From: Thermacetogenium phaeum DSM 12270
GTDB lineage: Bacteria; Bacillota; DSM-12270; Thermacetogeniales; Thermacetogeniaceae
DNA length: 24,000 nt
Direction of reading: 5' to 3'
NCBI RefSeq assembly: GCF_000305935.1
Contig: NC_018870.1
Span: forward strand, 55,942-79,941
Made by a program: the position numbers and the translations under genes. Shown here in pieces: positions 324-15,708 of this stretch. Below the pieces are notes generated by a model. It saw only the letters and a list, made by a program, of their open reading frames with translations, was not told the origin of the DNA and ran no database searches. How positions within the stretch are numbered: position 1 is the first letter of the stretch; every line of letters begins with the position of its first letter.

Positions 324-493
324 TCCTACACCGCCTGCTGCCGGCCGGCTTGCGGTTGCGGAATTTCTCCCGTTTTTAGGCGCCGGCACCCTGCCCTCGT
401 GCCCGGGACAATTGTGTAGTACTCTTAGCATACTTGAGAAAACGCTTTTTCGCAAGTCCAGGATTTCTATTTGTGCTGCGGGGAGGGAATGTC

Positions 494-3214
494 GTGGATG
501 GCAGGAAGAGGCTTGTCCGGCTGCTGTTTGTGGTGCTGGCGCTGGTTCTAGGCGACAGGGCTCTTAATGTCTGGGCGGATTACGAGTGGTTCAAGTCCCT
601 TGGTTACCAGGGAGTTTTCTGGACGCTGTTCTCGACGCGCTTTGTGGTGGGTGCCGCCGTTTTCCTGGTCCTCTTCGCCTTCTTCCAGCTCAACTTCAGA
701 TGCCTCCGGCGCTGCCTGCCGCCGCACCGGGTTTACGACCTCCACGGTGGCCGGATTTTGGCGGCGATGGTGAACCCCCTGCACCGCCTTATTACCTCCG
801 ATGCCGGCAAATATCTCTTTACCGTCTTGAGCGTCGCCTTATCCCTTATCTACGCCGTGAGCCTCGGCGCCCGCTTTGAGGTGATTCAGAAATTCGTCTA
901 TGCGGTGCCCTTCGGGCGAACCGACCCCATTTTCGGCCGAGACGCTGCCTTTTATGTCTTCAAACTGCCCTTTTACGAACTCCTTCAGTCGTCCCTGGCC
1001 TCGGCTTTTATTGTGGCGCTTTTTCTCTGCGCTTTTGTTTACCTTCTGCTGGCTTCGGGCGAATTTCTGCACGGGGGATGGCGTTTCTTTTCCCCGGTCA
1101 AGCTGCACCTAGGCTCTCTCATCGCCGGCCTCCTGGTTTTGAAGGCCTGGGACTACCACCTGTCCGTCTACCGTCTCCTCGTCGGCGGGAGCGGTGCCTT
1201 CCCCGGCGCCGGTTACACCGATATTCATGCCCGCCTCCCGGCATATCAGATTCTGGCGGTGCTGGCCGTGTTGGTCGCCGTTCTGGTCTTCGTCGGCATC
1301 TTTAAGGGGAGGGTTCTCCCGGTTGCCGCCGGAGCGGCCGTGCTGGCGGCGGCCTCCCTTCTTCTGGGTGCGGTTTATCCCGCCTTTGTGCAGAAATTTC
1401 AGGTGGAGCCCAATGAGTTCGCCCGGGAGGAGCCCTACATCGAGTACGGCCTTGACGCCACCCGCTTCGCCTTCGGGTTGGATGACGTCAGAAGCGTCAG
1501 TACGGCGGCGGCGGATGCCGGAGCAGGTGGGTTGGATGGGGAGACGCTGGAGAAGAGCGCAGGCCTCCTCCGCAATCTGCGCCTCTGGGACTTCCGCCCC
1601 CTGCAGCAGGTTTACAATCAGCTGCAGCAGCTGCGCCGCTACTACGTTTTTGCCGACGTGGACGTCGACCGCTACCGCCTGGGGGATCAATACCGCCAGG
1701 TGATGCTGGCGGTGCGGGAGCTGAACCAGGAGAATCTCCCCGAGCGCGCCGGAACCTGGGTGAACCGCCGGCTCCAGTACACCCACGGCTACGGGGTGGT
1801 GATGAGTCCGGCCAACGAGGTCACCGACGCCGGCCTTCCGGTGATGCTGCTTAAGAACATCCCACCTGCTGCCTCCTCACCGGAAATCGAGGTGAAGCGC
1901 CCGGAGATCTACTTCGGGGAGCTGACCGGCAACATGGTAGTGGTCAATACCAGGGCGGGGGAATTCAGCCACCCCTCCGGGGAAAGGAATGTTTACACCA
2001 ACTACGAGGGGCAGGGTGGTGTCAGGCTCACCCCTATCAAGCGCCTGCTCTACGCCCTGCACTTCCGCGACTTGCGCCTGCTCCTAAGCTCCGAGATCAC
2101 TCCCCAGAGCCGCATTCTCTACAACCGCACCGTTCAGGATGCCAGGCGCCTCGCCCCCTATCTCCGGTATGACGGGGACCCTTATCCGGTGGTGGACGGG
2201 GGGCGTATCTACTGGATCCTGGATGCCTATACGGTTGCCGGTCACTACCCCTACTCCGCTGCCAGAAATGGGATCAACTACGTCCGCAACTCGGTGAAGG
2301 TGGTTGTAGATGCCTACGAAGGGGATATTTCCTTTTACACCAGCGACCCCTCCGACCCGGTGGTCGGAACCTACAGCAGGATCTACCCCGGCCTTTACCG
2401 GCCTCTGTCGGAGATGCCTGCCGGCCTGCGAGCGCACCTGCGCTATCCTGAGGACCTTTTTAAGATGCAGGCGGACGTCTTTGCCGAATACCACGTCCGG
2501 GATGCCCGGGTTTTCTACAACAGGGAGGATGAGTGGGAGGTCCCTAAAGAGAAGTACTCCGATGCCAGCCGGCAGATGGAGCCCTACTATGTGATCATGC
2601 AGCTCCCCGGGGAAGAGGAGGAGGAGTTCCTGCTGATCCTCCCCTTTACTCCGATGAAGAGGGGGAATGCCGTGGCCTGGCTGGCGGCCCGCTGCGACGG
2701 GGAGCACTACGGTGAGCTCGTTCTGGACGTCTTTCCCAAAGATGTGCACGCCTACGGACCCATGCAGGTAGAGGCCAGCATCGACCAGGACGCCGACATC
2801 TCCGCCCAGCTTACCCTCTGGAACCAGCACGGTTCCCAGGTGATCCGGGGAAATCTGCTTACCGTCCCCCTGGCCGGCAAGCTCCTCTACGTCAAGCCCC
2901 TCTTTCTCCAGGCCGAGGAGAGCGCCATGCCGGAGCTGATCCGGGTGATCGCTTTCTACGACGGGAGGGTGGTTATGGAAAAGGATCTGCAGGGAGCGCT
3001 GGACAGGCTCTTCGGCCGGGCCGAACAGCCCCCGGAGCAGGGAGCCGCAACGCCGCAGGCTCCGGGAGATTCCTCCGCTCTTGCCCGGAGGGCCTGGCAG
3101 CTCTATCAGGAGGCCGGCGAGCGCCTCCGCGCCGGAGACTGGTCGGGTTACGGCAAGGCCATCGAGGAGTTAGGCCAGGTGCTGAAGGAGATGGCTGGGG
3201 AAACCGGCCGGTAG
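494..3214 (+). CDS. UPF0182 family large integral membrane protein (function unknown)
   Basis: 926-aa ORF (434-3214). It has multiple N-terminal TM helices, then a large soluble region with blocks I recall from UPF0182/COG1615 (LRLWDFRPL..YNQLQQLRRYY, QYTHGYG, PYY). I prefer GTG 494 as start because GGGAGGG (481-487) lies 6 nt upstream; TTG 434 is the alternative. Confidence 0.75.
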   Translation: MDGRKRLVRLLFVVLALVLGDRALNVWADYEWFKSLGYQGVFWTLFSTRFVVGAAVFLVLFAFFQLNFRCLRRCLPPHRVYDLHGGRILAAMVNPLHRLITSDAGKYLFTVLSVALSLIYAVSLGARFEVIQKFVYAVPFGRTDPIFGRDAAFYVFKLPFYELLQSSLASAFIVALFLCAFVYLLLASGEFLHGGWRFFSPVKLHLGSLIAGLLVLKAWDYHLSVYRLLVGGSGAFPGAGYTDIHARLPAYQILAVLAVLVAVLVFVGIFKGRVLPVAAGAAVLAAASLLLGAVYPAFVQKFQVEPNEFAREEPYIEYGLDATRFAFGLDDVRSVSTAAADAGAGGLDGETLEKSAGLLRNLRLWDFRPLQQVYNQLQQLRRYYVFADVDVDRYRLGDQYRQVMLAVRELNQENLPERAGTWVNRRLQYTHGYGVVMSPANEVTDAGLPVMLLKNIPPAASSPEIEVKRPEIYFGELTGNMVVVNTRAGEFSHPSGERNVYTNYEGQGGVRLTPIKRLLYALHFRDLRLLLSSEITPQSRILYNRTVQDARRLAPYLRYDGDPYPVVDGGRIYWILDAYTVAGHYPYSAARNGINYVRNSVKVVVDAYEGDISFYTSDPSDPVVGTYSRIYPGLYRPLSEMPAGLRAHLRYPEDLFKMQADVFAEYHVRDARVFYNREDEWEVPKEKYSDASRQMEPYYVIMQLPGEEEEEFLLILPFTPMKRGNAVAWLAARCDGEHYGELVLDVFPKDVHAYGPMQVEASIDQDADISAQLTLWNQHGSQVIRGNLLTVPLAGKLLYVKPLFLQAEESAMPELIRVIAFYDGRVVMEKDLQGALDRLFGRAEQPPEQGAATPQAPGDSSALARRAWQLYQEAGERLRAGDWSGYGKAIEELGQVLKEMAGETGR

Positions 3215-3255
3215 CCTGGGGTATTAATAATACCCGGCGGGATGAGGAATCATAA

Positions 3256-3483
3256 GTGGAAAAAGAGGGGTTGATCCATTTGGATAGCGGAAGGGCAAAG
3301 GAGATTGTGGAGTCGCTGGGGGTTGTTGAGGTGCTGTACAACGGTTTCCCCGTCTGGATCGAACGGCTGAACGGGGATACGGCAGAGGTGCGCTTTCTGG
3401 AAACCGGGGGGCGGCTGGAGGTGCCGGTGACGGAGCTGGTGGAAGGTGGGTCCCTCGGGGAAGAGGGGCCGGGCGGCCCATAA
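3256..3483 (+). CDS. sspH: H-type small acid-soluble spore protein
   Basis: ..GRAKEIVESLGVVEVLYNGFPVWIERLNGDTAEVRFLETGGRLEVPVTELVE resembles the SspH pattern (RAKEI..S....V.YNG.PV.I........A.V......E..VP...L.E). TTG 3280 may be the true start (AGAGGGG at 3264-3270, 9-nt spacing). Confidence 0.75.
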   Translation: MEKEGLIHLDSGRAKEIVESLGVVEVLYNGFPVWIERLNGDTAEVRFLETGGRLEVPVTELVEGGSLGEEGPGGP

Positions 3484-3537
3484 TGCGGAAATATTCTTGG
3501 TGGGCTGTTCCGAATCTTAAAAAACAAGGGGTTGTGG

Positions 3538-3584
3538 AAAATTCGCTCCCGGGCAGGGGAACTCGCCCGGGAGCGAATTTTTTA
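3538..3584 (+). terminator. Rho-independent terminator after sspH
   Basis: Perfect 16-bp stem AAATTCGCTCCCGGGC (3538-3554) / GCCCGGGAGCGAATTT (3565-3580), 10-nt loop, then a T-run. An A-run on the 5' side makes it partly bidirectional. Confidence 0.8.
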
Positions 3585-3622
3585 AGAGCGACCTTAACGG
3601 CGTGTTCGGCCGGCAGGAAAGG

Positions 3623-3840
3623 GGTTGTCTCTCACGGCGCGGCGACCTTCAGGAGGTTGCTGCTCGTCCTTGACGGAGAAGCCCAGGCAGGAGGCCGAAT
3701 CGACAAGGGATGTAGAGACGGGTGTTCTCCGGTTGCGGGGACGAAAAGCCGGTCGGCTGCCGGCGGACACAAGTTTTTGTTGTGAATTAAACTGAAGATC
3801 CAGGAACGAGCGGCAAGAGGGAACCGGAACGTATTCTCAG
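3623..3840 (+). ncRNA. Unclassified structured RNA-like element, copy A (homologous to 9181-9405)
   Basis: No credible ORF. Colinear conserved blocks are shared with the element at 9181-9405. Closing helix GGTTGTCTCT (3623-3632) / AGAGGGAACC (3816-3825). Inner helix GGCCGA (3693-3698) / TCGGCT (3753-3758). The wobble positions are G-T on the + strand. Confidence 0.45.
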
Positions 3841-3999
3841 GGAAAGTCGAATAAAATGTATTTGGAGAAGGACTTCCCCCGCTCTGCCGAGAATTAATCT
3901 GCGGATTTCAGTTCCGCCGGATGGCTGGGCTGAAACCGAAAAGGGGCAGTTATATATTTACCAGAGGATGCTTGTTGTTGCAGGAGGGGTCGATAGGCT

Positions 4000-4866
4000 G
4001 TGGGTGGCTATCGGTTTCAGTCCGGGGTGTTCCTCGTCCTCTTTTCCGGCATCTGTTACGGTTTTATGCCGATTATCGCCATCTATGCCTACCAGGGCGG
4101 AGCTACGGCGACCACGCTGGCCTTTCTGCGCGCCGCGTTGGCGGCGGTTCTTTTTATTGTCTACCTGTTCTGGAGAGGCTTTCCGTCGAACGTTAACAGA
4201 AGGGCCGTTCTTATACTTTTAGCGGTTGGCGCCTTTGTGCAGCCCCTGGAGTCTTTCTGCTATGTGGCGGCCCTCCAGTACATCTCCGCCGGTCTGACCG
4301 TGCTCATCTTCTACACCTATCCAGCCTGGGTGGCAATCTGGGGTCTTCTTTTTCGCTGGGAAAGGCTGTCGCTGCGCAAGGGCATTGGGATTGCTGTTGC
4401 CAGCGCCGGTCTCGTTCTGGTCGTGGGCACCTCCCTGGGCCGGGTGAATGCTTACGGCGTCCTTCTCGCCATCACTGCCGCACTGGGCTGTTCTTTTTAT
4501 GTCATCTTCTCCAAAAGGGCGATCAGGGATGTAGGCCCCCTTTACGCTTCAACCATCATGTCCGTCTCCACGGCTGTAACGCTGGGAGTCATCGGAGCCG
4601 CAGCAGGCGGCCTTTCCTTCGGGATGCAACCGCTGGGCTGGTTGATGGCGCTGCTCTGTGCGGTGGTCACCGTCAATCTTGCCCTCTTGGCTTTTCTGGC
4701 GGGGCTCAAGATCGTGGGTTCCACCACTGCGTCCATCCTCTGCATGACGGAGCCCCTGACGACGGTCGTCTTCTCCGCCATCCTCTTTTCCCAGCACCTG
4801 ACTGCCAGCCAGCTCCTTGGCGGTCTGGTGATCCTTGCCGGCGCCGTCCTGGTGGTGAAGGGGTGA
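4000..4866 (+). CDS. EamA/DMT-family transporter (10-TM type)
   Basis: 288 aa and hydrophobic throughout, with two EamA-like halves (FSGICYGFMPIIA..; ..SASILCMTEPLTTVVFSAILF..L...QLLGG.LIL.G). GTG start preceded by GCAGGAGGGG. Its stop abuts the stop of the convergent gene with 0 nt between them. Confidence 0.85.
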   Translation: MGGYRFQSGVFLVLFSGICYGFMPIIAIYAYQGGATATTLAFLRAALAAVLFIVYLFWRGFPSNVNRRAVLILLAVGAFVQPLESFCYVAALQYISAGLTVLIFYTYPAWVAIWGLLFRWERLSLRKGIGIAVASAGLVLVVGTSLGRVNAYGVLLAITAALGCSFYVIFSKRAIRDVGPLYASTIMSVSTAVTLGVIGAAAGGLSFGMQPLGWLMALLCAVVTVNLALLAFLAGLKIVGSTTASILCMTEPLTTVVFSAILFSQHLTASQLLGGLVILAGAVLVVKG

Positions 4867-5508
4867 CTACTGCTCTAAGGCGGCGATGACCTCTTCGTCG
4901 GTAGTCTGCCGAAAATCCTCGTAGAACTGCCCCACTGCGTAAAAGGCTGCGGGGGCGTGGAGGCAGATGAGGTCGTCTACGAGCAGGCGCAGTTCGGCGA
5001 CGGCCTCCCTGGAGGCTACCGGCACCGCCAGGACGAGGGCCGCCGGTTCCTGTTTGCGGAGCGATTGCAGGGCGGCTTTTACCGTCATGCCTGTGGCAAT
5101 TCCGTCGTCGATGAGGATCACCGTTTTCTCCCGGCAGTCGAGGGCGCCCCGCCCCCTCCGGTAGTAGCGGCTGCGCCGTTCCATTTCTTTCCTCTCCCGC
5201 TCGATCTGCTCCTGAAGGTCGCTCTTCGTTAAGTTCAACAAGGACAGGGCGCGTTCGTCGAAGATCACCGCACCGTCGGGAGCTGCTGCCCCTATGGCCA
5301 GTTCCTCGTTGAAGGGAGCCCCGATCTTGCGGGGAATTATCACGTCGAGGGGGGCCTGCAGGGCCCTGGCCACTTCTGCTGCCACGATTACTCCACCGCG
5401 AGGAATGCCAAGTACGAGCACATTTTTCCCCCTGTAATGAGTTAATTCTTCGGCCAACCTCTTGCCCGCATCCCTGCGGTCTAAAAAAACCAGCTTACTC
5501 ACCTCCAC
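4867..5508 (-). CDS. Phosphoribosyltransferase-domain protein (COG1926-like)
   Basis: FLDRRDAGKRLAEEL..VLVLGIPRGGVIVAAEVARAL.APLDVI..RKIGAP.N.ELAIGA and the PRPP loop VILIDDGIATGMT. The N-terminal 28 aa of the 241-aa track ORF are Pro/Gly/Ser-rich and unlikely to be real. In-frame GTGs at 5508 and 5502 are candidate starts; the start is uncertain. Confidence 0.75.
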   Translation of the reverse strand: MEVSKLVFLDRRDAGKRLAEELTHYRGKNVLVLGIPRGGVIVAAEVARALQAPLDVIIPRKIGAPFNEELAIGAAAPDGAVIFDERALSLLNLTKSDLQEQIERERKEMERRSRYYRRGRGALDCREKTVILIDDGIATGMTVKAALQSLRKQEPAALVLAVPVASREAVAELRLLVDDLICLHAPAAFYAVGQFYEDFRQTTDEEVIAALEQ

Positions 5509-5807
5509 AGGACAGCTGCCGGTTGCCGAGGGGCCAGATCCCGGAAGACCTGACGCCGGAGGCTGTTTTTCCGCCCCCTGGCCAGGCGGCAACTGCCCTC
5601 TCTTTTGAAACTATTGTAGCAGCGCCCGGCGGCCGCCTCAAGACTAAAACACCGGACTGTTGAGTCGGAAGTCGCTGGCCGGGGTGCCCTTCCCCGGGCT
5701 TCCTGCCAGGGCTCCCCGGGACCACTGCTGCTGCAGGCAGGCGGGGGAAAGAGCCGCCCCTTTATTGCATAAAGATTAGGGATCACCATTAAAGGGGGTG
5801 CTTCCTT

Positions 5808-6114: not shown

Positions 6115-6257
6115 AAGAGCCAGCATAATGCGGCGCCCTCCGGCTGTGGAAAGCGGGCAGGGGCTGCGGCGATCCCTGAATGCTTTCTCCAGGCTTTAGG
6201 GACAACCCGGCCTGCCTGTCGCCTATCGGCCGGGACGGGACGAATGGGGGGAGAGAG

Positions 6258-6971
6258 ATGAATCTTCTCGACGGAATCATCCTTATTCTTCTGGCTGCAG
6301 GTGCTCTGAGCGGTTACCGGCGCGGGCTTATCGGCGCAGCAGCCTCTTTCTTGGGGTTCCTGGGAGGGATCTGGCTGGCCGGCCACTATTACATCCCTTT
6401 GGCCGGCATCCTGGAGCAGCGCCTTGGTTTGGAGGAGCTCTTCACCCGCATCCTCTTTCCCTTCTGCGCCGGAATCCCCGTCAGCGGTGGGGAGCCTCTT
6501 TTGAATCCTGTGCCGGGTGCGGATGTCCCCGGTTTTCCGCCTTCCCTCTGGGAACCGGTGCAGGCGTTGAATCTGGGCATCGGCGGTGTTGCCATCGCCC
6601 GCACGCTGGCTGACAGCCTGGTAAAGCTGTTGGCCTTCTTCCTCATCTATGCCCTGGCCTCCTTTACCCTGGGTTCGCTGGCGGGCTTCTTGGGCGGAAT
6701 CTGCACCAGAATTGCCGGGCTGTTCCTGCTGGGGGGTGTGAACAGATTGGGAGGCCTGGCCTTGGGGCTGGTGACCAGCGCCCTCTTCGTGGCCGTTGCG
6801 GTGGGGATGCTGACCCCTTTCATCTTCGGTCTCACCCTGGGCCTACCGGCAGCCGAGGGGCTGCGCCAGGCGCTTCTCAACAACTGGAATGCCTCACTGC
6901 TAATACCTTATTTCACCAGAAGCTGGGGAGCGATCGCCTTGGTGCTGGCGCGCCTCTTTCGAATGGTCTAA
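6258..6971 (+). CDS. cvpA: CvpA-family membrane protein
   Basis: MNLLDGIILILLAAGALSGYRRGLIGAAASFLGFLGG is a typical CvpA N-terminus, with further TM segments. ATG 6258 is preceded by GGGGGAGAGAG. The 6180 start in the track adds an implausible leader. Confidence 0.8.
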   Translation: MNLLDGIILILLAAGALSGYRRGLIGAAASFLGFLGGIWLAGHYYIPLAGILEQRLGLEELFTRILFPFCAGIPVSGGEPLLNPVPGADVPGFPPSLWEPVQALNLGIGGVAIARTLADSLVKLLAFFLIYALASFTLGSLAGFLGGICTRIAGLFLLGGVNRLGGLALGLVTSALFVAVAVGMLTPFIFGLTLGLPAAEGLRQALLNNWNASLLIPYFTRSWGAIALVLARLFRMV

Positions 6972-7248: not shown

Positions 7249-8307
7249 GTGCCGAAAGAGCAAGAAACCATCAGATTGACCCGCTTTGCCCGCTACTCCG
7301 GTTGAGCGGCCAAACTGGGGCCGGGTGCCCTGGAGGAAATACTGGCCGGGCTGCCGCGCTTTGAACATCCCGACCTTTTGGTCGGCACTGGGATACCCGA
7401 TGATGCCGGGGTTTACCGCCTGCGGCCGGATCTCGCCTTGGTGCAGACGGTGGATTTCTTCACACCGGTGGTGGACGACCCCTACTGGTTCGGCCAGGTG
7501 GCTGCGGCCAATGCCTTGAGCGACATCTACGCCATGGGGGCAACCCCCTTGACGGCCTTGAACTTGGTTGCCTTTCCCTCCTGCAAGCTGGGCCCGGAAG
7601 TGCTCCGCGCCATCCTCAAGGGGGGGTGCGACAAGGTGGCCGAGGCGGGTGCGCTGGTGCTGGGCGGGCATTCCGTTGAGGATGATGAGCCCAAGTACGG
7701 GCTGGCGGTGACCGGCGTCGTCCATCCCGCGGAAGTCGTCACCAACAGCGGTGCCTGCCCCGGGGATTTCCTCATCCTTACCAAACCGCTGGGGACGGGG
7801 GTGATGGTGACGGCCCTGAAGGGAGGCCTCCTCACTCCCGACGAAGAGAGGAAGCTGGCGGAGGTGATGGCCTTGCTCAACGCCCCCGCCGCAGAAGCCA
7901 TGCGCCTGGTGGGCGTCCATGCCTGCACCGATATCACGGGATTCGGCCTGCTCGGACACCTGCGGGAAATGGCCGTCAACAGCGGTGTGGATGTGGAAAT
8001 AGAGCTCGCTTCCCTCCCGCTGCTTCCAAAGGCGAAGAAGTTTGCGGAGGAAGGGCTGATTCCCGGAGGTGCCTACAGAAACAAGGAGTATCTCAAGGAC
8101 CATGTGGAGATCGGCGGCCGGATCTCTCCTGCCGAGGAGGACCTCCTCTATGACCCGCAGACATCCGGGGGGCTGCTTATCGCCGTCTCCGGAGAAAAGC
8201 GGGAGCAGCTGCTTTCCGCTCTGCGGGAAAAAGGGGTTGCTTCCCCTCGTGCCGTCGGACGGGTTACGGGAAGGGGAAAGGGCAGGATTCTGGTGCGGGG
8301 GGTTTAA
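7249..8307 (+). CDS. selD: Selenide, water dikinase (selenophosphate synthetase), selenocysteine-containing form
   Basis: GTG 7249 (GGGGGGAG upstream) reads VPKEQETIRLTRFARYSG-TGA-AAKLGPGALEEILAGLP... in frame with the 309-aa track ORF (7378-8307). The TGA sits at the Cys/Sec position of the N-terminal glycine-rich loop of SelD. The rest (DDAGVY, VQTVDFFTPVVDDPY.FG.VAAANALSDIYAMGA.P, GGHS.ED.EPKYGLAVTG) is canonical SelD. Confidence 0.9.
7303..7305 (+). other. In-frame UGA recoded as selenocysteine in selD
   Basis: TGA at codon 19 of the extended selD frame. It is flanked by conserved SelD sequence on both sides (..YSG U AAKLGPG..). Confidence 0.85.
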
Positions 8308-8344: not shown

Positions 8345-8932
8345 TTGTCGGAGGAAGGTGTGTTTGTGGATGCCCGCGGGCTTTCCTGCCCCCAGCCGGT
8401 GATCATGACCAGGAAAGCCCTGGAGTCGGCCGCTGAGGGGAGGGTGACGGCTGTCGTCGATAATGAAGTCGCCAGAGATAACATCGTGAAGATGGCCCGC
8501 TCGCTCTCCTGTGAGGTAGACATCGACAGGGCGGGGAGCGATTATTACATCCACATTACCAGGCCGGAGCACTTCTCCACCCGACTGCAGAGACAGGAAA
8601 CACAACTCTTTGTGTTTTCCTCAGACTGCCTGGGCCGGGGGAGTGAAGAGCTCGGGCGGACCCTGATGAAGAACTTCTTCTATTCCCTGTGCGAGCAGGG
8701 AGGATTGGGCAAGGTCCTGATATTCTTAAACGGCGGGGTCAGGCTGACCTGTACCGGGTCACCGGTGCTGGATTATCTCATCGAGCTTCAGCAAGACGGC
8801 GCCGCCATTCTCACCTGCGGCACCTGCCTGGACTATTACCAGCTGCGTTCCAGCCTGGGTGTGGGCGAGGTCACTAACATGTACGCCATTGTCGAATACC
8901 TTCAGCAATGCCCCCGTGTTGTTTTTCTTTAA
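8345..8932 (+). CDS. yedF: YedF-like selenium metabolism protein (TusA/SirA-like N-domain + DsrE-like C-domain)
   Basis: MSEEGVFVDARGLSCPQPVIMTRKAL (CPxP motif) followed by a DsrE-like half (LFVFSSD.LG.G..ELG..LM..F...L.....P..IIF.N.GV.L; ILTCGTCLDYY). TTG 8345 with AGGAGGGAG 5 nt upstream. Sits immediately downstream of selD. Confidence 0.8.
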   Translation: MSEEGVFVDARGLSCPQPVIMTRKALESAAEGRVTAVVDNEVARDNIVKMARSLSCEVDIDRAGSDYYIHITRPEHFSTRLQRQETQLFVFSSDCLGRGSEELGRTLMKNFFYSLCEQGGLGKVLIFLNGGVRLTCTGSPVLDYLIELQQDGAAILTCGTCLDYYQLRSSLGVGEVTNMYAIVEYLQQCPRVVFL

Positions 8933-9140
8933 CAACTGAAGGGGGATGGCTTCGTTGTTCTCAAGAGGGGAGCTCCCCGTTGAAAGGACGCTCTCCTCAT
9001 ATTTTCCCTTATCGTCGCCGGCTTCGCCTCGTGGAGAACGCCGTCCGGTGGTGCCGTGCCGGGAGCGGCAGGCGGCGCTTCGGATGCGCCGGTCAGCTCC
9101 CTAAACCCTCAAACAGGAAGGATTCTATTCTATAGACCAC

Positions 9141-9405
9141 CATGCTGCCATCGGCGGCACCAACATAGGAACGAAAAAAGGGTTTATCCTTGTCGGCGCA
9201 GCGACCTGACGGAGGTTGTTACTCGCCCTTGACGAAGGAGCAGCAAACGGCAGCCGAATCGAGACAGGATGTCGAGATAGGCGACTCTGCGGCAGGGAAG
9301 GCGCATAGGAGCCGGTCGGCTGCTTATCTATCGACGAGTCTTAGGACGAGTTAAACCGAAAGATCCGGGAGCAAGCGCAAGGATAAACCGAAACGTATTT
9401 TCAGA
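9141..9405 (+). ncRNA. Unclassified structured RNA-like element, unit B1
   Basis: 5' hairpin GCTGCC-ATC-GGCGGC (9144-9158) + ACCAACA. Perfect 12-bp closing helix GGTTTATCCTTG (9181-9192) / CAAGGATAAACC (9378-9389). Inner helix GCAGCCGA (9250-9257) / TCGGCTGC (9316-9323). Small hairpin GTCG-AGATAGG-CGAC. Homologous to copy A. Confidence 0.45.
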
Positions 9406-9410
9406 GCAGA

Positions 9411-9718
9411 CACCCATGCCGCCTCCGGCGGCACCAACAGAGTATGAAAATACTCGACGGGTCTGCCGGCGAGCGACCTATGGAAGGCCGGGTAACAGGA
9501 CAGGCGAAGCGAGGATGACAGGTCGGGATGCGAGTACAGACACCTTGCGAGTTTCGATGGAATGGATTTGTAGCGAGGCCAAACGCTGCGATTGGCAGAA
9601 ACAAATTCGTAACATGTAACGCAGCATCCAGAGCTGTCCCGAAGCGAGCCGTCGTCCTGTCCGGCCTGGAATCGGGAGTCAAGCGGTAGACCGGCAGGAT
9701 ATGCGATCTATTTTCATG
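9411..9718 (+). ncRNA. Unclassified structured RNA-like element, unit B2 (diverged tandem copy)
   Basis: Same 5' hairpin and tail as B1: GCCGCC-TCC-GGCGGC (9418-9432) + ACCAACA. GNRA hairpin GAGTAT-GAAA-ATACTC (9440-9455). Conserved CGGCGAGCGACCT junction. Long-range helices CTGCCGG (9463-9469) / CCGGCAG (9691-9697) and GGCCGG+ACAGG (9486-9504) / CCTGT+CCGGCC (9656-9666). Hairpin GCTGCG (9585-9590) / CGCAGC (9620-9625). Shares the TATTTTCA tail. Confidence 0.35.
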
Positions 9719-9758
9719 ACAGAGAAAAAAGCAAGACGGAAAGAGAAAGGTGAAGAGG

Positions 9759-9965
9759 ATGGCACCGATGCGGTTTAGCCTCGGCGATGTCGTGCGCATG
9801 AAAAAACAGCATCCCTGCGGGAATGACGAGTGGGAGATCCTGCGGGTGGGGATGGATTTCCGCATCCGCTGCCTGAAGTGTGGGCGCCAGGTGATGATCC
9901 CCAGGGCGAAGTTCGAAAGGAGCGTCAAGGCCGTGGTCAGGGAGGCGCTCTCGGATGAAGAGTAG
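9759..9965 (+). CDS. DUF951-family small protein (YyzM-like)
   Basis: ..FSLGDVVRMKKQHPCGNDEWEILRVGMDFRIRCLKCGRQVMIPRAKFERSVK matches the DUF951 pattern that usually sits just upstream of rpsF in Firmicutes. The start is ambiguous (GTG 9750, ATG 9759 or ATG 9768). Confidence 0.8.
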   Translation: MAPMRFSLGDVVRMKKQHPCGNDEWEILRVGMDFRIRCLKCGRQVMIPRAKFERSVKAVVREALSDEE

Positions 9966-10010
9966 AGCTTAAAGCACACGCCCGGAGGTCTGCGAAGGGC
10001 TTTGATCTTC

Positions 10011-10039
10011 TTGTTCCCGGTTGCTTCTCATGGTATAAT
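10011..10039 (+). promoter_or_regulatory. Sigma-A promoter of the rpsF-ssb-rpsR operon
   Basis: TTGTTC (10011-10016), 17-nt spacer, extended -10 TGgTATAAT (10031-10039). Confidence 0.7.
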
Positions 10040-10045
10040 CTTTTA

Positions 10046-10096
10046 GAATTGTCCCTGCCCCTGCGGGGGCCATCAGTCCGAAGGGAGGTGGGAAGT
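10046..10096 (+). promoter_or_regulatory. Candidate rpsF leader hairpin (possible S6:S18 autoregulatory site)
   Basis: TCCCT (10052-10056) can pair with AGGGA inside the SD (10082-10086), enclosing hairpin GCCCC-TGC-GGGGC (10057-10070). A structured S6/S18-binding leader is known upstream of rpsF in many bacteria; its identity here is not verified. Confidence 0.35.
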
Positions 10097-10387
10097 TTGC
10101 GGCCTTATGAGATTCTTTTCATCCTCAAGCCGGATCTTGAGGAGGAGGCGACGACTGCCGCCATCGATAGGTTCGCAAACCTGATCCAGCAGAATCAAGG
10201 ATCTGTCGAGCAGATCAGCCGTTGGGGAAAGAGGCGGTTGGCCTACGAGATCGCGGGCTACCGCGAGGGCTACTACACCCTGATCCTATTCCAGGGTGAA
10301 CCGGCAACGGCAAAAGAGCTGGATCGGGTGATGCTCCTTACCGATGAAGTGCTGCGCCACATCATAGTCAGGCGCGATGCCGCATAA
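10097..10387 (+). CDS. rpsF: 30S ribosomal protein S6
   Basis: TTG 10097 with AAGGGAGGTG 6 nt upstream. (M)RPYEILFILKPDLEEE..RWGKRRLAYEI..EGYY is canonical S6. The 10049 start in the track is a spurious extension through the leader. Confidence 0.95.
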   Translation: MRPYEILFILKPDLEEEATTAAIDRFANLIQQNQGSVEQISRWGKRRLAYEIAGYREGYYTLILFQGEPATAKELDRVMLLTDEVLRHIIVRRDAA

Positions 10388-11204: not shown

Positions 11205-11344
11205 GGGTTGAAAGAAACCCCCGAGTTTGTCGGTTGACCCCCGAGTTTGGACGAATCTACCTGGACAAAGGCTACAGCTACATCTTCGCCTCCCGCCTGA
11301 AGAGAATAAAGAAAAGCGTCCAAAAAGGACGTCTTCTCACCTGA
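11205..11344 (+). pseudogene. Possible short remnant of a DDE (IS4/IS1634-like) transposase
   Basis: Frame reads ..PEFGRIYLDKGYSYIFASRLKRIKKSVQKGRLLT* (stop 11342-11344). The LDKGY and Y.YI...RLK strings resemble motifs I recall around the second Asp of IS4/IS1634 transposases. Very short, with no start codon; weak call. Confidence 0.3.
11218..11249. repeat. 12-nt direct repeat CCCCCGAGTTTG x2, separated by 8 nt
   Basis: 11218-11229 and 11238-11249 are identical. Confidence 0.9.
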
Positions 11345-11522
11345 TGGTTATCTGGGAAAAAGATATTGCGCCTGCTGCGCATGAAACAACCGAACAATGT
11401 GATTGCTGCTGATGACTTCCATGATCAGGTAATGTAGTGGCAAAATGCGCGCTTTTTAAAAAACTTTTTTAGGTTTCATACGGGTTTGAGCAGGGTCATC
11501 TGATAAACTCAGGATTGTCAAG

Positions 11523-11537
11523 ATATGATGGATTAAA
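11523..11537. repeat. Terminal inverted repeat (left copy)
   Basis: ATATGATGGATTAAA; contains the TAA stop (11533-11535, minus strand) of the 431-aa ORF. Confidence 0.95.
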
Positions 11538-12828
11538 TTTTCACCCCCTTGGAAGCTAGATATTCCTTGATCTCCTGATGATCCCGGTAGTGTTCCCGGA
11601 CAAGTTTCAGGTGCTCATTTATCAAGGAGATCCCCCTTTTCAAGAGGCGTGCCATAAGCTCAGGTGGAACACCGAACAAATACAAAATCAGGACTGCTTC
11701 GAAGGTTCCGATGTAGTTATCCACCGCCCGTGGTGAGTGATGAGTCATCCGGGCAATGTCTTTAACCGTGTAGCCCTGTAGATGCAGGCCGACGATCACA
11801 TCCTTGTGTGTCATGCTTCTCCCGGCATCAAGGATAGTCCCCGGGGTGGGCACTACCAGGTTATGTTCCCGCTGCACGCTGCGAATCAATTCCGAGATGC
11901 GGGCAGAACTTAACTGGAAGATCCACTGCAGCTCCATCAGAGTCAAGAGGCCGTTCTGGCGGTAGGCCTCGAAGCAGACCCGCACGATACGCCTCTTAAG
12001 TTGCTCCAGGAATCCCGGCACGGTGTCCGGCTGCTGCTCAAGCTCCTCGGGCTTCCAGACGGTGATAATCACCGGCGTCAACTGCCTGAAGCGGGTACTG
12101 ACGTCTTCCGAGAGGCGGGCGCTGACATGGGTCACGATGAGAGGCATCTCGTATGGCTTTAACTCCTTGGTTCGCGGGCAGCAGATGTGGCGCAGGGCGA
12201 TCACCTCTTCCACCAACTGGCGGGCCACCACCCGCCCGAGCCCGGCCTCCGCCGCCACGAATTCTGTCAGTTCCTTGAGCACCCGCCCTGGTGCCAGCAA
12301 ATCCGGCGCCTGCAGGCGGTCAGCAGGCAGGACTGGCTGAATTTGTTCAATCATGCAGTCCCAGGATGCCGCATCCGTCTTGCTGTAGGGCTGGATATCC
12401 TGGCACAGTTGATCAACATAGCTGGAGGGCCCTTTCTTACGCACCAGCGACCAGGGGTCGATGATGCGCACGAGGTCGCCCCGGCCGCCCTTGGGAAACC
12501 CCATGTGGTAACTTTGGAGGCAGCGCTCCAGGATCAGCTGCCTGGCCATGCCGAAGTCCCCGCCGCCGAGGATCGGATCCAGATACTCGGGGCAAAACAG
12601 AGGCAGGCGGGCCTGGCTCTGAGCCTTTTGCACGTACAGTTCGAAGGGCTTCACCCGCTCGATGCCCAGGACGGACTCCATCTCTTCCATGCGGCGGTTG
12701 ATCTCTTCTACCAGGAGCCGGGCGACCAGCGACTCCTTGCCGAAGTCGTACCTGCGGGCCAGGTACTGCACCTGGTAGTTGACGAGAGTTCTTTCCACCA
12801 GCGGCCGGTAGAGTTCGCGGCGGTTCAT
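11533..12828 (-). CDS. Multi-HTH protein, DUF1670-like C-terminal module (paralog of the upstream 513-aa gene)
   Basis: 431 aa of normal composition. C-terminal ~130 aa (..AYRQNGLLTLMELQWIFQLSSARISELIR......VPTPGTILDAGRSMTHKDVIVGLHLQGYTVKDIARMTHHSPRAVDNYIGTFEAVLILY..GVPPELMARLLKRGISLINEHLKLVREH) align with the C-terminus of the 513-aa protein. They match my memory of the Pfam DUF1670 pattern (L...DLA.LL..S..T.S......E.....LPTRG...D.G...THK..I..LY..G.....IA....HS....RYI..F..V). ATG overlaps the upstream stop (ATGA). Confidence 0.7.
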   Translation of the reverse strand: MNRRELYRPLVERTLVNYQVQYLARRYDFGKESLVARLLVEEINRRMEEMESVLGIERVKPFELYVQKAQSQARLPLFCPEYLDPILGGGDFGMARQLILERCLQSYHMGFPKGGRGDLVRIIDPWSLVRKKGPSSYVDQLCQDIQPYSKTDAASWDCMIEQIQPVLPADRLQAPDLLAPGRVLKELTEFVAAEAGLGRVVARQLVEEVIALRHICCPRTKELKPYEMPLIVTHVSARLSEDVSTRFRQLTPVIITVWKPEELEQQPDTVPGFLEQLKRRIVRVCFEAYRQNGLLTLMELQWIFQLSSARISELIRSVQREHNLVVPTPGTILDAGRSMTHKDVIVGLHLQGYTVKDIARMTHHSPRAVDNYIGTFEAVLILYLFGVPPELMARLLKRGISLINEHLKLVREHYRDHQEIKEYLASKGVKI

Positions 12829-14366
12829 CGCTTGACACCCCGCAGGCTTTTTTTTAGCTCGTCCTCGTGCAGTTCAAAAACTTTACGCAGGTGGTGTAGC
12901 CGGAAAGCGTATTCGGGGCCGGAGTATTCCTGAATCAACTCCAGATAAGTATTAATCAACTTAACTGATCGCCCGGTCACCCGCCGGATTAAGGGGACGG
13001 TCAGGCCGCGTTCGGACAGCACCAGCACTGCGGCGAATTCCTTGAGATAGTTCTCTATGGCCTCGTAGGAGTGCCCCGTGCGGGCGACGATCTCGGTCTC
13101 GGTATGCATCTCCAGATAGAGCTTGATGATCTTTTTGCGGTGAGTGACCCCGCGTCCGATATCGCACTCCATCCCCCTTAAGGGCACCGCCACGGCGGGG
13201 TGGGACCGCACCAGGCGGGAGATCGCCTCGGGGTGGATACCCAGCAGGTAGCCCAGGTCGGCATAGGTCAGGTAGCCCCCGGCGTATTTGGCCTGAGTGG
13301 CATAGCGCAGAACTTTCCGGAACTTGATATCGCTAAGGCGGTTTAAGTCCCGGTCCACATCCGGCGGCGGCACATCCTCCGGGTCTATTAGGGTAAGGCT
13401 CACCGGTACCAGACGGCAGGCCTCCAGGGGCTTGCCGGCCGGCTCGGTGCTGGCTACCGCCCAGTACACCACGTCCCCGTCAGGCCGGCTGTCGGAGAGG
13501 GCAGTCAGCATCTCCTCCGCTATTTCTCTCAAAGCCCTGGCCTTGACGGGTGACAGAGCAAAGTCCACCATGAGTTCATTCATGAAAGATGCCCAATCCC
13601 CGAAGGAAGGGGGTACGCCCGGCTCTTCCAAAAGGGGAAGCAGGGTCTTCTCCGGGACTACATGTACGATGGCCGCCCAGGCCTCCTCCTCGGGATCGCC
13701 CTGCTTAAACCTACCCTTTAGGATCGAGCGGGCAACGTGGGAAAAGCGGGACCACAGCTGCCGGAACGCTTCCCGGGATAGAGCAGCCGTTCGTCTGACT
13801 TCCGACAGGGACTCTCCATCCAGGTATCTGGCCAGCGCCCAGGCAGAGCGCAACATGCCACCACGCTCCCGGTCGACCCTGGGGAGACCGGCTACCGGTA
13901 CCCACATTCCTTCCCGGCGCAGTCCCGCCAGGCGGCTCCTGAGGGAGGTGGGCGTGATGTTACAGAGCACGGTCAGCTGTTTGGCGCTCAAGAGGGCATC
14001 CTGGCGGTAGGCCTCCTCGATCAAGCGGAGGATGCGGCCAGCCTGCATGGTGGACAGCCCGAACTCCAGCTCCAGGTCTAAATCTTCAATGTCGTAGGGG
14101 GTGAGCCTGATCTTTTTCAGTGCTTTATGCTTTCGAGAAAAGGCATCCCGTCCGGACACGGCGTCAGACAGGATCTGATTCGGGCCCCGTATCCCCGGCT
14201 GATTGGAAATCCACCTGGAGGTCCGGTACCCCAGCAACCGGGCCTCGGTCTCGCTCATGCCGAGTTCCTCGATAAAACGAACGGCGAGCAGGCTCTCCAG
14301 AGTCTTCTTGCGGGCTGATGCCACCTGGTATTTCAGGCGTTGACGGTATTCCTTGGCTCTTCCCAC
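12825..14366 (-). CDS. Multi-HTH protein with two DUF1670-like modules
   Basis: 513 aa. GTG start with AAGGAGG 7 nt upstream. N-terminal module (EEAYRQDALLSAKQLTVLCNITPTSLRSRLAGLRREGMWVPVAG). C-terminal module (..YAGGYLTYADLGYLLGIHPEAISRLVR.....VPLRGMECDIGRGVTHRKKIIKLYLEMHTETEIVARTGHSYEAIENYLKEFAAVLVLSERGLTVPLIRRVTGRSVKLINTYLELIQEY). Confidence 0.7.
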   Translation of the reverse strand: MGRAKEYRQRLKYQVASARKKTLESLLAVRFIEELGMSETEARLLGYRTSRWISNQPGIRGPNQILSDAVSGRDAFSRKHKALKKIRLTPYDIEDLDLELEFGLSTMQAGRILRLIEEAYRQDALLSAKQLTVLCNITPTSLRSRLAGLRREGMWVPVAGLPRVDRERGGMLRSAWALARYLDGESLSEVRRTAALSREAFRQLWSRFSHVARSILKGRFKQGDPEEEAWAAIVHVVPEKTLLPLLEEPGVPPSFGDWASFMNELMVDFALSPVKARALREIAEEMLTALSDSRPDGDVVYWAVASTEPAGKPLEACRLVPVSLTLIDPEDVPPPDVDRDLNRLSDIKFRKVLRYATQAKYAGGYLTYADLGYLLGIHPEAISRLVRSHPAVAVPLRGMECDIGRGVTHRKKIIKLYLEMHTETEIVARTGHSYEAIENYLKEFAAVLVLSERGLTVPLIRRVTGRSVKLINTYLELIQEYSGPEYAFRLHHLRKVFELHEDELKKSLRGVKR

Positions 14367-14378
14367 CAGTTTGCCTCC

Positions 14379-14651
14379 TTAACCCTTTCTGAACCCCGGC
14401 CGCAGTCTAAACCTGCGGCAGGATCCCATACCTGGGAGTATTGGAGGATTCTTGATCTCATCTATTACTTCCTGCATCCGTTTCAGTTTCTGCATGTCCC
14501 GGAGGATATCTTGGATCTGCCTATAACGGTCTTCATCATAGCGTCCGAGTGATGAAATTACTCGTTGTCTGGGATACCCTCCGCTAACATAGTAGTTGTG
14601 AGCTATCTGCATGTAACGGAGATCTCTGACTCTTACAATGCGTATGAACAT
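14379..14651 (-). CDS. Small ORF resembling the N-terminus of IS1634-family transposases (stand-alone or truncated)
   Basis: MFIRIVRVRDLRYMQIAHNYYVSGGYPRQRVISSLGRYDE.. follows the N-terminal pattern I recall for IS1634 transposases (MFIR.V....G..Y.QIVESYR..GK..Q.V...LG....). The last ~20 aa are Arg/Gly-rich and look out of frame. Its stop overlaps the RBS of the 513-aa gene. Confidence 0.45.
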   Translation of the reverse strand: MFIRIVRVRDLRYMQIAHNYYVSGGYPRQRVISSLGRYDEDRYRQIQDILRDMQKLKRMQEVIDEIKNPPILPGMGSCRRFRLRPGFRKG

Positions 14652-14657
14652 GGATCT

Positions 14658-14672
14658 TTTAATCCATCATAT
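14658..14672. repeat. Terminal inverted repeat (right copy)
   Basis: TTTAATCCATCATAT; on the minus strand it encodes the last codons and stop of hicB (..Y M M D *). Confidence 0.95.
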
Positions 14673-15102
14673 ATCGGTTGAAGAAGTGTTTGTCAACAAA
14701 GCCAAGTTGTTCCTTTAAAGCGTACTGAAGGACTTGAGAGAAGTTTATTCCTTCTTTTTCGGCTGCGTCATTGAGCCACTTGGGTATAGTTAATGTTTTC
14801 TTGATCGCCCGATTTTGTGTCTCGTCACGAATAGGTTCTGTACGAGCCTGGATTAGGGTTACGAAGGCGCCAGGGCTTGCATCTTCCGGTAATTTTACTT
14901 CCACAGGGTTGGAAGGAACCGGAATTTCATCGCCGTCCTCCTCCATGCCATACAAGTGGAGAGCCATGGCTTCGGCAGCCATCTTTAATGCTTCGTCCAG
15001 AGTATCGCCTTCCGTTACACAACCGGGAAGGTCGGGAAACGTAACAGTGTACCCGCCATGTTCGTTGGGATCAAAAATCGCAGGATAAACGTATTTAGGC
15101 AT
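14659..15102 (-). CDS. hicB: HicB-family antitoxin (HicB fold + C-terminal RHH-like DNA-binding region)
   Basis: MPKYVYPAIFDPNEHGGYTVTFPDLPGCVTEGDTLDEALKMAAEAMALHL is a typical HicB N-domain. C-terminal ..KKTLTIPKWLNDAAEKEGINFSQVLQYALKEQL is ribbon-helix-helix-like. AAGGAGG RBS. Directly downstream of hicA. Confidence 0.9.
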   Translation of the reverse strand: MPKYVYPAIFDPNEHGGYTVTFPDLPGCVTEGDTLDEALKMAAEAMALHLYGMEEDGDEIPVPSNPVEVKLPEDASPGAFVTLIQARTEPIRDETQNRAIKKTLTIPKWLNDAAEKEGINFSQVLQYALKEQLGFVDKHFFNRYMMD

Positions 15103-15129
15103 CTATGCAAACCTCCTTTCTGCCGGGGC

Positions 15130-15315
15130 TTACTTAAGGAGCCCGGCCTGCTTAAGTATTGACTTGAATGTTTTTGGTGCTAGAGATTTTCTTGGGTGAG
15201 GGACGGTTACTTTGCCAGGTTTTGTTGGGTGTTTGAACTGATGATGACTTCCCGCGACCCCCACCAAGTACCAACCGTCCTCTTCAAGCAATTTGATTAT
15301 TTCGCGGGAAGACAA
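15130..15315 (-). CDS. hicA: HicA-family mRNA interferase toxin
   Basis: (M)SSREIIKLLEEDGWYLVGVAGSHHQFKHPTKPGKVTVPHPRKSLAPKTFKSILKQAGL is canonical HicA/YcfA. TTG start with no well-placed SD (see findings). Confidence 0.85.
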   Translation of the reverse strand: MSSREIIKLLEEDGWYLVGVAGSHHQFKHPTKPGKVTVPHPRKSLAPKTFKSILKQAGLLK

Positions 15316-15349
15316 GCTTTCATGATTGTCGCCTCTTCTTTCTGGTTCT

Positions 15350-15374
15350 ATTATAGCACGTATAAAAAATACGT
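15350..15374 (-). promoter_or_regulatory. Candidate hicAB promoter with overlapping palindromic operator
   Basis: The minus strand reads ACGTAT-TTTTT-ATACGT-GC-TATAAT: extended -10 TGcTATAAT (-10 = 15350-15355), and a perfect 6-bp-arm palindrome at 15358-15374 in the spacer. Confidence 0.5.
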
Positions 15375-15708
15375 TTCAGTAAGAAATACAAGAAAAGGAC
15401 CCTTATGGCTCAACAACTGGATGATGTTAATTTGAAGATCAACAACCATGGCCTGAATAACTTTTGTAATCAGTTGCCTGCCGTATGGCAGAAGTGGCAA
15501 TGCCGGCGATGAGCAGAGTACGGGTGGATGGCTGTCTGCTGCCGGCATCAGGTGTTGTCCGGCCAAAAAAAGCCGACCGCCGGCCGGAAGACCGGTTTCT
15601 GCCTCAATTTGCGGAATATTCTCCTTGCGGCGGAACAAAAATACCAGCGAAAGACTGTTTCTCTGAAGCAGGAATCGAATGCTCGGGTGCCGAAGTTCTT
15701 AAGCCAAA

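Follow-up and report, generated by a model that had tools for sequence, protein, structure and literature searches.

A gap upstream of the DUF951 gene in Thermacetogenium phaeum is probably a pile-up of dispersed intergenic repeats related to TwoAYGGAY

The structured RNA motif TwoAYGGAY (RF01731) was found in gut metagenomes, gamma-proteobacteria and Clostridiales; its 2010 description takes it for a probable non-cis-regulatory RNA and notes that helix P1 is often very large (PMC2864571). Gardner and Eldai proposed it as a CsrA-binding small RNA (sRNA) of Clostridia (PMC4333381). Its 2010 seed alignment holds several copies per genome in Psychromonas ingrahamii as well as copies from Pelotomaculum thermopropionicum, and in the gut copies of the seed the outer helix amounts to a terminal inverted repeat of about 50 bp. 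Rfam places the family in clan CL00106, which is also the clan of E. coli CsrB. To our knowledge, TwoAYGGAY has stood in Rfam since 2010 without a known function, CsrA binding in Clostridia being the only role proposed. Here we analyze the 826-nt gap between yedF and the DUF951 gene (positions 8933-9758) in a stretch of 24,000 nt, referred to as the window (assembly GCF_000305935.1, contig NC_018870.1, positions 55,942 to 79,941), from Thermacetogenium phaeum DSM 12270, a thermophilic, spore-forming, syntrophic acetate oxidizer (PMC3551663). We consider it reasonably probable that separate copies of a structured repeat, which is intergenic, dispersed, specific to the lineage and probably mobile, have piled up in this gap, that the gap is thus not one RNA gene, and that the GGA loops of the repeat bind a protein.

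The gap is composed of four parts, namely a terminator-like hairpin behind yedF, a GC-rich hairpin region and the two repeat units U1 (9136-9409) and U2 (9410-9722). A third unit, U0, lies 5.5 kb upstream of the tandem pair and is degenerate. The ends of U1 were set where similarity among the dispersed copies stops, and its score is that of a hidden Markov model (HMM) built of full-length copies; L051 denotes the contig of assembly JAALLR01 that carries the orthologous locus. The units and their parts are as follows.

U1, 9136 to 9409, plus strand: full copy of the dispersed repeat (about 275 nt), comprising head, P1, TwoAYGGAY-like core, P1' and tail; 335 bits
U1 head, 9144 to 9165, plus strand: hairpin GCUGCC-AUC-GGCGGC, then ACCAACA
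U1 P1 5' strand, 9181 to 9192, plus strand: GGUUUAUCCUUG, pairing with 9378 to 9389 (CAAGGAUAAACC)
U1 core, 9207 to 9364, plus strand: three-way junction (GCCGA/UCGGC stem) and two hairpins with GGA loops at 9267 to 9269 and 9296 to 9298
U1 P1 3' strand and tail, 9378 to 9409, plus strand: GAAACGUAUUUUCAGAGCAG
U2, 9410 to 9722, plus strand: head, junction strands and tail as in U1, interior a long irregular helix; absent from L051
U2 P1 5' strand, 9460 to 9467, plus strand: GGUCUGCC, pairing with GGUAGACC at 9685 to 9692
U2 P0 5' strand, 9444 to 9452, plus strand: AUGAAAAUA, complementary to the tail UAUUUUCAU at 9709 to 9717
U0, 3618 to 3846, plus strand: diverged, head-less copy between the sspH terminator and EamA; HMM score 93 bits

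A unit measures about 275-315 nt. It opens with a hairpin and ACCAACAGAG; next come a strand rich in purines, whose pairing partner is the 3' tail, and the closing helix P1, and the unit is completed by two conserved junction strands (CGGCG(C)AGCGACCU and CGGGAG(U)CAAGCG), by an interior that can be exchanged and by the tail UAUUUUCAGGGCAG. The interior is the TwoAYGGAY three-way junction in U1 and U0 and a long helix in U2. Hairpin and ACCAACA are present in all full-length copies. A preliminary description of this DNA had listed motifs, repeats and complementarities, all of which are present at their coordinates: the hairpin with ACCAACA occurs twice (9134-9168 and 9408-9442 are 83% identical over 35 nt), the helix 9181-9192/9378-9389 is a perfect 12-bp complement by direct reading, U1 and U2 share the conserved CGGCG junction and the end tail, and the third homolog that it had placed at 3623-3840 is found again by nhmmer (E = 1e-20 to U1). 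GGCGGCACCAACA is found exactly twice, and both RGCGACCT (at 3641, 9200 and 9472) and CGTATTYTCA (at 3830 and 9394) recur above shuffle expectation. Calculated on single sequences, the fold z-scores against shuffles are -2.95 for U1, -3.95 for U2 and -0.44 for U0.

Compared with L051, U0 is 89.9% identical (L051 892-1117), and its surroundings (the 3' end of UPF0182, sspH and both spacers) are 98.3-99.6% identical. The 22 substitutions are grouped at 3650-3715 and 3807-3822 and are mostly uncompensated. Adenine-specific mutagenesis of the kind caused by diversity-generating retroelements was ruled out for this hotspot by a substitution spectrum that is not A-specific; the divergence may have come about by gene conversion, with another copy as the donor.

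Judged by its sequence, U2 is a sister element of U1 and not a domain of one RNA. The L051 locus is collinear with the window at 93-96.5% identity, and U2 is missing from it as a clean 299-nt indel bounded by a 15-nt tail repeat, such that the U1 tail in L051 abuts AGAGAAAAAAGCAAGACGG..., the DUF951 leader. Either U2 has been inserted next to a tail, or the sequence between two tails has been lost. The preliminary description had read the gap as a candidate large or multi-domain non-coding RNA (ncRNA) and had raised the possibility of one long 5' leader of DUF951. While 826 nt without coding signal, the strong fold z-scores of U1 and U2 and the location of the units on the DUF951 strand agree with such a molecule, the units are separable: U2 is dispensable in L051, which keeps the same DUF951 leader without it, and U1-type units stand alone at at least 13 other, unrelated loci. 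In addition, more distant relatives have an mscS gene at this place, rpsF probably has a promoter of its own, and the OLE, ROOL, GOLLD, raiA and HEARO families, which had been named for comparison, give no match either at gathering thresholds in the window or at E <= 10 in 8850-9850. A single large RNA, or a leader dedicated to DUF951-rpsF, is most unlikely on this evidence.

The structure of U2 could be refined with its homologs, namely a copy in L036 (242 bits), a partial one in L031 and a permuted fragment in L063. Its junction strands are CGGCG-AGCGACCU at 9467-9479 and CGGGAGUCAAGCG at 9673-9685. The closing helix 9460-9467/9685-9692 is supported by the relatives, which show A-U, G.U and G.U variants in L036, L031 and L063, while the register 9463-9469/9691-9697 proposed before acquires an A.C mismatch in L036. 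Similarly, a GNRA-capped hairpin suggested at 9440-9455 loses two of its six pairs in L036 and L031; the P0 helix predicted by RNAalifold from the window and L036 keeps 9 bp in L036, with the register shifted by one base. The pairing 9585-9590/9620-9625 does form in the window sequence but is not kept in L036, where it contains a G.A mismatch. Between U2 and L036, the only other full sequence, there are 38 differences, of which 6 fall in the 172 paired columns and none breaks a pair, although this support rests on two full sequences and on a structure derived from the same two. U2 has no Rfam match in a permissive search of 8850-9850. The L063 fragment (960-1200) is circularly permuted: the 3' half is followed by a head-like module without the UAUUUUCA tail and by the 5' half, and the apical domain is absent.

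For the search of further copies, a degenerate three-way-junction pattern was built from U0, U1 and the L027 copy and scanned against one genome per species and against JGI metagenomes, real matches being sorted from noise by nhmmer and a profile of full-length copies. In 185,579 genomes the pattern gave 8 matches, two of them real (L031 and L036), and T. phaeum itself was not among the matches; a relaxed pattern gave 33 loci in the metagenomes, of which 12 are real and the other 21 proved to be noise on inspection. Viral contigs, plasmids and phages scanned for the repeat yielded nothing. A 5' junction pattern, CGGCG(N)RGCGACCUNNNGRAGG, was also tried on viral contigs and rejected, all 22 matches lying in GC-rich coding sequence. 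Assembly JAALLR01 contains at least 14 copies of U1/U0 type on 11 contigs. Other copies come from LDZS01 (L062, orthologous to L048), DULK01, CADDZD01 and a JGI metagenome (L027); the copies outside JAALLR01 include those of a metagenome-assembled genome (MAG) labeled 'Syntrophomonadaceae' (L031) and of a 'Clostridia bacterium' (L036, three units). Aligned with 200 nt of flank, the copies start abruptly at AG|ACCACCAUGCC (also AG|ACCACCAUGCCGCC) and stop abruptly at UUUUCAGGGCAG| (tail UAUUUUCAGGGCAG|).

The copies are intergenic, and the housekeeping genes around them are unrelated. Copies separate rplJ from rplL, downstream of the L10 leader, and the gene for an ABC substrate-binding protein from that for its permease; others lie 3' of a gene for an SLH-domain protein, between Band7 and TorD-like genes, and near spoIIR, an Mrp/ParA ATPase and NAD synthase. 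Where they sit in the operons rplJ-rplL and ABC binding protein-permease, they are set off by spacers of 16-26 nt. Most copies are on the strand of at least one adjacent gene. In L050 the copy (1458-1734) is located between rplJ and rplL in sense orientation, the L10 leader being kept (70.8 bits, L050 2300-2436); the repeat is evidently tolerated within an essential ribosomal-protein transcript there. Group II intron domain V/VI matches occur on two repeat-bearing contigs (L050 6746-6816 and L065 47-117), and a CRISPR array (L062 7124-7940) lies about 2 kb from a repeat copy; no link is shown between the repeats and either of these.

To assess conservation of the fold, we used 21 copies, scored on the RNAalifold structure plus the outer part of P1. 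Standard pairs occupy 92.5% of the cells, and 26 of 74 pairs are changed on both sides, compared with 8.1 ± 2.3 in column shuffles (none of 500 reaches 26) and at most 12 in controls with slid partners; with the structure derived from the same, related sequences, these figures support the fold and do not prove it. Covariation is seen in helices 9-11 and is clearest in the two apical hairpins, where, for example, one position is C-G in 9 copies and G-C in 8. P1 (helix 2) is 86.6% paired across copies, with 4 pairs changed on both sides. Near-invariant are the three-way junction, the junction helix with its tandem G.A pairs and the GGA in the apical loops. The analysis thereby supports the view, already put forward in the preliminary description, that the units carry a fold preserved by compensatory substitution. 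The strand was assigned mainly because of the Rfam orientation and the co-orientation with genes.

The relation to TwoAYGGAY emerges below the Rfam gathering score, which is 43 bits for this family. At gathering thresholds the whole window has no Rfam match, but in a permissive search U1 matches RF01731 over its full length (model positions 1-168) with 32.1 bits (E = 0.0066). In the relatives, the scored copies give a full-length match on one strand at 31-41 bits, and the only one above the gathering score is an inverted copy in L036 (2135-2291) with AUGGAU in both loops, at 51.4 bits. The three-way junction and outer P1 of TwoAYGGAY are present; pairing in helices 9-11 amounts to 90-99%, and 12 of their pairs have changed on both sides. 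In U1 the loops are C-AGGAU-G and GCAGGGAAGG, which retain GGA and not the Y positions of AYGGAY; CAUGGAUG occurs in one loop (L031, L036a) or both (L036c), and GGA is found in loop 2 of all copies and in loop 1 of all but two. Taken together, this supports homology of the T. phaeum units to TwoAYGGAY, and not formal membership; the repeat core would belong to, or descend from, this family. A head module in Psychromonas, where by eye a hairpin and ACCAACA had seemed to follow downstream of the TwoAYGGAY copies in the 2010 alignment, was rejected (local alignment score 19 versus 16.2 ± 2.0 in shuffles, maximum 23). Among the outcomes named in the preliminary description as speaking against its reading were a clear hit to a known family and many copies genome-wide with the signature of a miniature inverted-repeat transposable element (MITE). 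The former has largely come about, with one relative above the gathering score and consistent full-length sub-threshold matches in the scored copies; of the latter, the many similar copies exist and the terminal inverted repeats and target-site duplications are missing.

As to what the RNA might do, the units would ride on neighboring transcripts in sense orientation, and their two apical (A/U)GGA hairpin loops would form a paired site to which an RNA-binding protein could attach as a dimer. The foremost candidate for this protein is CsrA, a tentative choice that we would not call likely. A CsrA dimer would be well served by two GGA hairpins spaced about 30 nt apart, and fliW-csrA is usual in flagellated Firmicutes. 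The flagellar gene set of T. phaeum is complete (PMC3551663). No csrA gene is present in the 0.55 Mb of loci collected, and our literature search found no paper linking T. phaeum and CsrA. The same facts bear on an alternative in which each unit is an independent gene for a trans-acting sRNA, a CsrA decoy of the Csr/Rsm type with its own transcript that multiplied by duplication like the Rsm and Qrr sRNAs. The flagellar genes and fliW-csrA count in its favor, as do the CsrB clan and the proposal by Gardner and Eldai (PMC4333381), the loops ACAGGAUGU and CAUGGAUG, which are near known CsrA sites, and AT-rich hexamers about 8 nt upstream of the first conserved base in the 5' flanks. Each unit, however, has two loop GGA sites with no overall GGA enrichment, and both a terminator and a -35 element are missing; conservation does not extend upstream, which means that no promoter was copied along with the unit, and copies lie inside operons with spacers of 16-26 nt. 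We consider such sRNA genes unlikely. The tail TATTTT as a -10 box, with transcription starting at the first conserved base, was discarded as a candidate (no -35, variable flank spacing, negative scan). A small protein starting at the AUG of the conserved head was likewise ruled out by stops and frameshifts in other copies (8-66 aa) and by the lack of a Pfam match.

The flanks of the copies hold information on how they might spread. All ten independent 5' flanks end in AG, and in register with the tail consensus they agree at 5.6 of 15 positions; shuffles reach 3.8 ± 0.5 (P < 2e-4) and slid registers at most 4.1. The flank motif is roughly TTCA-N2-4-AG, like the unit's own tail, and the tail-like flank GGAUUCUAUUCUAUAG 3' of the GC-rich hairpin, whose final AG immediately precedes U1, fits this target-like consensus. 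It appears moderately probable from these comparisons that the repeat spreads by site-specific insertion 3' of a tail-like motif. New copies would arise just 3' of a TTCA-N2-4-AG motif, and tandem stacking would follow because insertion after a tail-like motif brings a new tail. At least 14 copies on 11 contigs and the U2 indel, from the one filled/empty pair looked at, are what a mobile repeat in general would show. Terminal inverted repeats and target duplications were not found in the copies: the ends AGACCACC... and ...CAGGGCAG are unrelated, and the flanks share only AG. This is more in keeping with a recombinase of the single-strand HUH type, or a comparable one, than with a cut-and-paste MITE. 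Among IS200/IS605-type features, the left subterminal hairpin is present, the right hairpin was not found and the target-like flank is significant.

Two further explanations concern mobility. In the first, the units would be orphan guide-type RNAs serving a nuclease or recombinase encoded by a transposon: stand-alone copies, similar to omega-RNA or bridge RNA, that an IS200/IS605 or IS110 element at another genomic position has left behind or with which they act in trans. Consistent with this are the missing terminal repeats and target duplications, conservation that ends exactly at the unit ends, insertion beside an invariable short motif (AG...AG in the flanks, which is CT...CT when read on the opposite strand) and a subterminal hairpin 8 nt from the left end; yet no tnpA, tnpB, iscB or IS110 gene, nor any other transposase gene, adjoins one of the roughly 20 copies, the omega-RNA families of Rfam give no match, no hairpin lies near the right end, and the two GGA loops are constant and not programmable, which renders guide RNAs quite unlikely. 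In the second, the repeat would act at the DNA level only, as a classical MITE or invertible element with P1 as its inverted repeat. P1 is indeed a perfect inverted repeat of 12-14 bp, the L036 segment between the P1 arms is inverted, and gut members of the TwoAYGGAY seed have the long terminal inverted repeats mentioned above. P1 is internal, however (about 45 nt of the unit lie to its left and 20 nt to its right), no target duplication is consistent (ATT on both sides of the P1 boundaries was considered and dropped, being found in L036 and not in the other copies), and the internal hairpins show compensatory changes that a transposase would not need, leaving a DNA-only element very unlikely. 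L036 2068-2370 has 13-bp P1 arms and then a second, 5'-truncated tail fragment, which suggests an inversion or nested insertion at the P1 repeats.

Several observations weigh against the reading of the gap as a pile-up of mobile, protein-binding repeats. The T. phaeum copies are below the gathering threshold of TwoAYGGAY, U0 having no match even at E <= 10, and the wobble signal for the strand is weak (67 G.U versus 45 A.C cells). The L043 copy is antisense to both neighbors, and in one L036 copy (about 2068-2370) the core enclosed by the P1 arms runs opposite to the head and tail of the same unit. Neither a sigma-70-like promoter nor an intrinsic terminator accompanies the units (8800-10100 and 3400-4050, plus strand). 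GGA is not enriched (27 in the gap versus 20.9 ± 3.8, 9 in U1 versus 7.4 ± 2.2), and therefore the region is not a multi-site sponge of the CsrB style. Mobility is deduced from a single indel, which could equally be a deletion between two tails, and from flank statistics, and no mobilizing enzyme, autonomous copy or right-end subterminal hairpin was seen among the copies and loci examined. As a speculative extension, which we hold to be rather unlikely, units of the TwoAYGGAY type would constitute a hitherto unrecognized class of site-specific, non-autonomous mobile elements without terminal repeats or target duplications, inserting just 3' of the tail-like TTCA-N2-4-AG motif and so stacking in tandem, with the fold (as RNA or single-stranded DNA) as mobilization substrate, and spreading paired GGA sites into operons as mobile CsrA decoys.

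The remaining parts of the gap and the genes bordering it are listed here.

yedF (TusA domain, Pfam), ending at 8932, plus strand
Terminator-like hairpin 3' of yedF, 8965 to 9008, plus strand: GAGGGGAGC ... GCUCUCCUC, then AUAUUUUCCC; kept in L051
GC-rich nested hairpin region, 9061 to 9135, plus strand: GGGAGC..GGCGC-UUCGGAU-GCGCC..GCUCCC at 9061 to 9101; kept in L051
DUF951 gene, 9759 to 9965, plus strand: PF06107, E = 5e-31, with a 36-nt leader behind the U2 tail

The hairpin at 8965-9008 has a 16-nt loop and was missed for this reason by a simple terminator scan; that it acts as a terminator of yedF is what we infer from its sequence. The nested GC hairpins, already noted in the preliminary description together with their tail-like flank, are conserved in L051, and the region 9061-9135 has no homolog at the other loci searched. 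That description had also taken the gap to be non-coding, and none of its three open reading frames (8908-9135, plus; 9416-9619, plus; 9401-9979, minus) has a Pfam match. DUF951 starts at 9759 (ATG) or alternatively at 9750 (GTG), and its product is 100% identical to the T. phaeum protein in nr. The order of genes in the window, assigned by Pfam, is UPF0182 (434-3214), sspH (3256-3483), EamA (4000-4866), a phosphoribosyltransferase (4867-5592, minus strand), a CvpA-like protein, selD (7378-8307), yedF, the gap, DUF951 and rpsF. Between DUF951 and rpsF, TGGTATAAT at 10031-10039 resembles an extended -10 box by direct reading; rpsF probably has its own promoter at this position, which the simple scan passed over because of a poor -35 match.

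In the Thermacetogeniaceae MAG loci around the closest homologs of DUF951, an mscS gene (281-299 aa) is located between selD/yedF and DUF951, its 3' end overlapping the DUF951 start. The T. phaeum units would stand where the relatives retain mscS, with DUF951 now apparently directly behind the last tail. A decayed mscS pseudogene would account for the gap by position and by size, the relatives' gene lying exactly here with about 850-900 nt. This explanation is refuted by tblastn, in which four relatives' MscS proteins leave no trace in 8933-9758 even at E = 10, and the gap sequence is homologous to repeats at other loci; we regard it as practically untenable, in agreement with the earlier statement that the gap is not a decayed gene. 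Another relative, L023, carries directly 3' of yedF a short unit of about 150 nt with the same scaffold: its head hairpin is GCCGC-UCAU-GCGGC ACCACC, its junction strand on the 3' side is CCGGGAGCGAGCGCAAGGAUGACC, and its tail AUAUUUUUCAAGGCAG resembles that of the other units; the presence of this superfamily at the site is therefore old. In the mscS-bearing locus L025, the spacers 2750-3500, 4600-5160 and 6190-6480 hold other short repeats (GACAGTCCC/GGGGGGACAG blocks and AAACCG-spaced AAAAAGACTGACA units) that are unrelated to the TwoAYGGAY-type units.

Elsewhere in the window, three observations were made on genes outside the repeat. The selD region (7261-7440) contains an in-frame UGA at a conserved position (..RYSG*AAKLGP..), found also in L025 and L027, because of which the mechanical open reading frame begins no earlier than 7378; SelD of T. 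phaeum probably contains selenocysteine. About 4.4 kb between rpsR and gdpP (11209-15700) hold four minus-strand genes, encoding two DUF1670 proteins (431 and 513 aa), a 90-aa open reading frame and a HicB-like antitoxin. In L025, L026 and L028, rpsR leads almost straight to gdpP, and the collinearity of L051 ends at 11208; the segment is probably an inserted island. Downstream of dnaB (21392-22246), a nucleotidyltransferase (Polbeta/MntA-like) lies beside a HepT-like RNase, a probable toxin-antitoxin pair.

If the repeat reading holds, the TwoAYGGAY motif is, in one thermophilic lineage, the cargo of a modular, sharp-ended repeat that multiplies, stacks, enters operons such as rplJ-rplL and varies between near-identical strains while its fold is still selected. 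The region would mark the loss of mscS and a re-wiring upstream of DUF951 in T. phaeum. It also carries a warning: long structured gaps free of open reading frames in these genomes may be pile-ups of repeats and not single large RNAs.

Compared with known systems, the gap shares with OLE, ROOL, GOLLD, raiA and HEARO a large non-coding stretch in a Firmicute, and differs from them in being composite and in matching none of their covariance models. With the CsrB/RsmZ-type sRNAs of CL00106 the units have in common GGA in hairpin loops and the Rfam clan; in contrast to them, they have two loop sites, no GGA enrichment, no promoter or terminator of their own and a location inside operons. BOX, ERIC, REP/BIME and Correia elements are likewise short, non-coding, multi-copy, intergenic and strongly folded and are co-transcribed with their neighbors, as the units would be, and the constant end modules with a variable middle recall boxA-B-C, although the units have neither sequence relationship to these elements nor terminal inverted repeats and possess a compensated three-way junction. 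The palindrome-associated transposable elements (PATEs) of IS200/IS605 and the REP/RAYT system resemble the units in the absence of terminal repeats and target duplications, in a left subterminal GC hairpin and in insertion 3' of a right-end-like motif, while the units have no right hairpin and no Y1 transposase nearby, and their target motif is longer and looser than 4-5 nt. With TwoAYGGAY the units share the three-way junction, two hairpins with (A/Y)GGA(Y) loops, a variable and sometimes large closing P1, several copies per genome, no fixed gene neighbor and occurrence in Clostridia including Pelotomaculum. They differ from it in that the T. phaeum copies score 32 bits or not at all and have AGGAU and AGGGAA loops rather than strict AYGGAY, in that the head hairpin with ACCAACAGAG, the junction strands and the UAUUUUCAGGGCAG tail are added outside the Rfam model, and in that the same scaffold also hosts an interior that is not TwoAYGGAY (U2 and the short L023 unit). 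New here are the conserved scaffold of head, junction and tail, the differing interiors, the target-like flanks and the strain-level indel.

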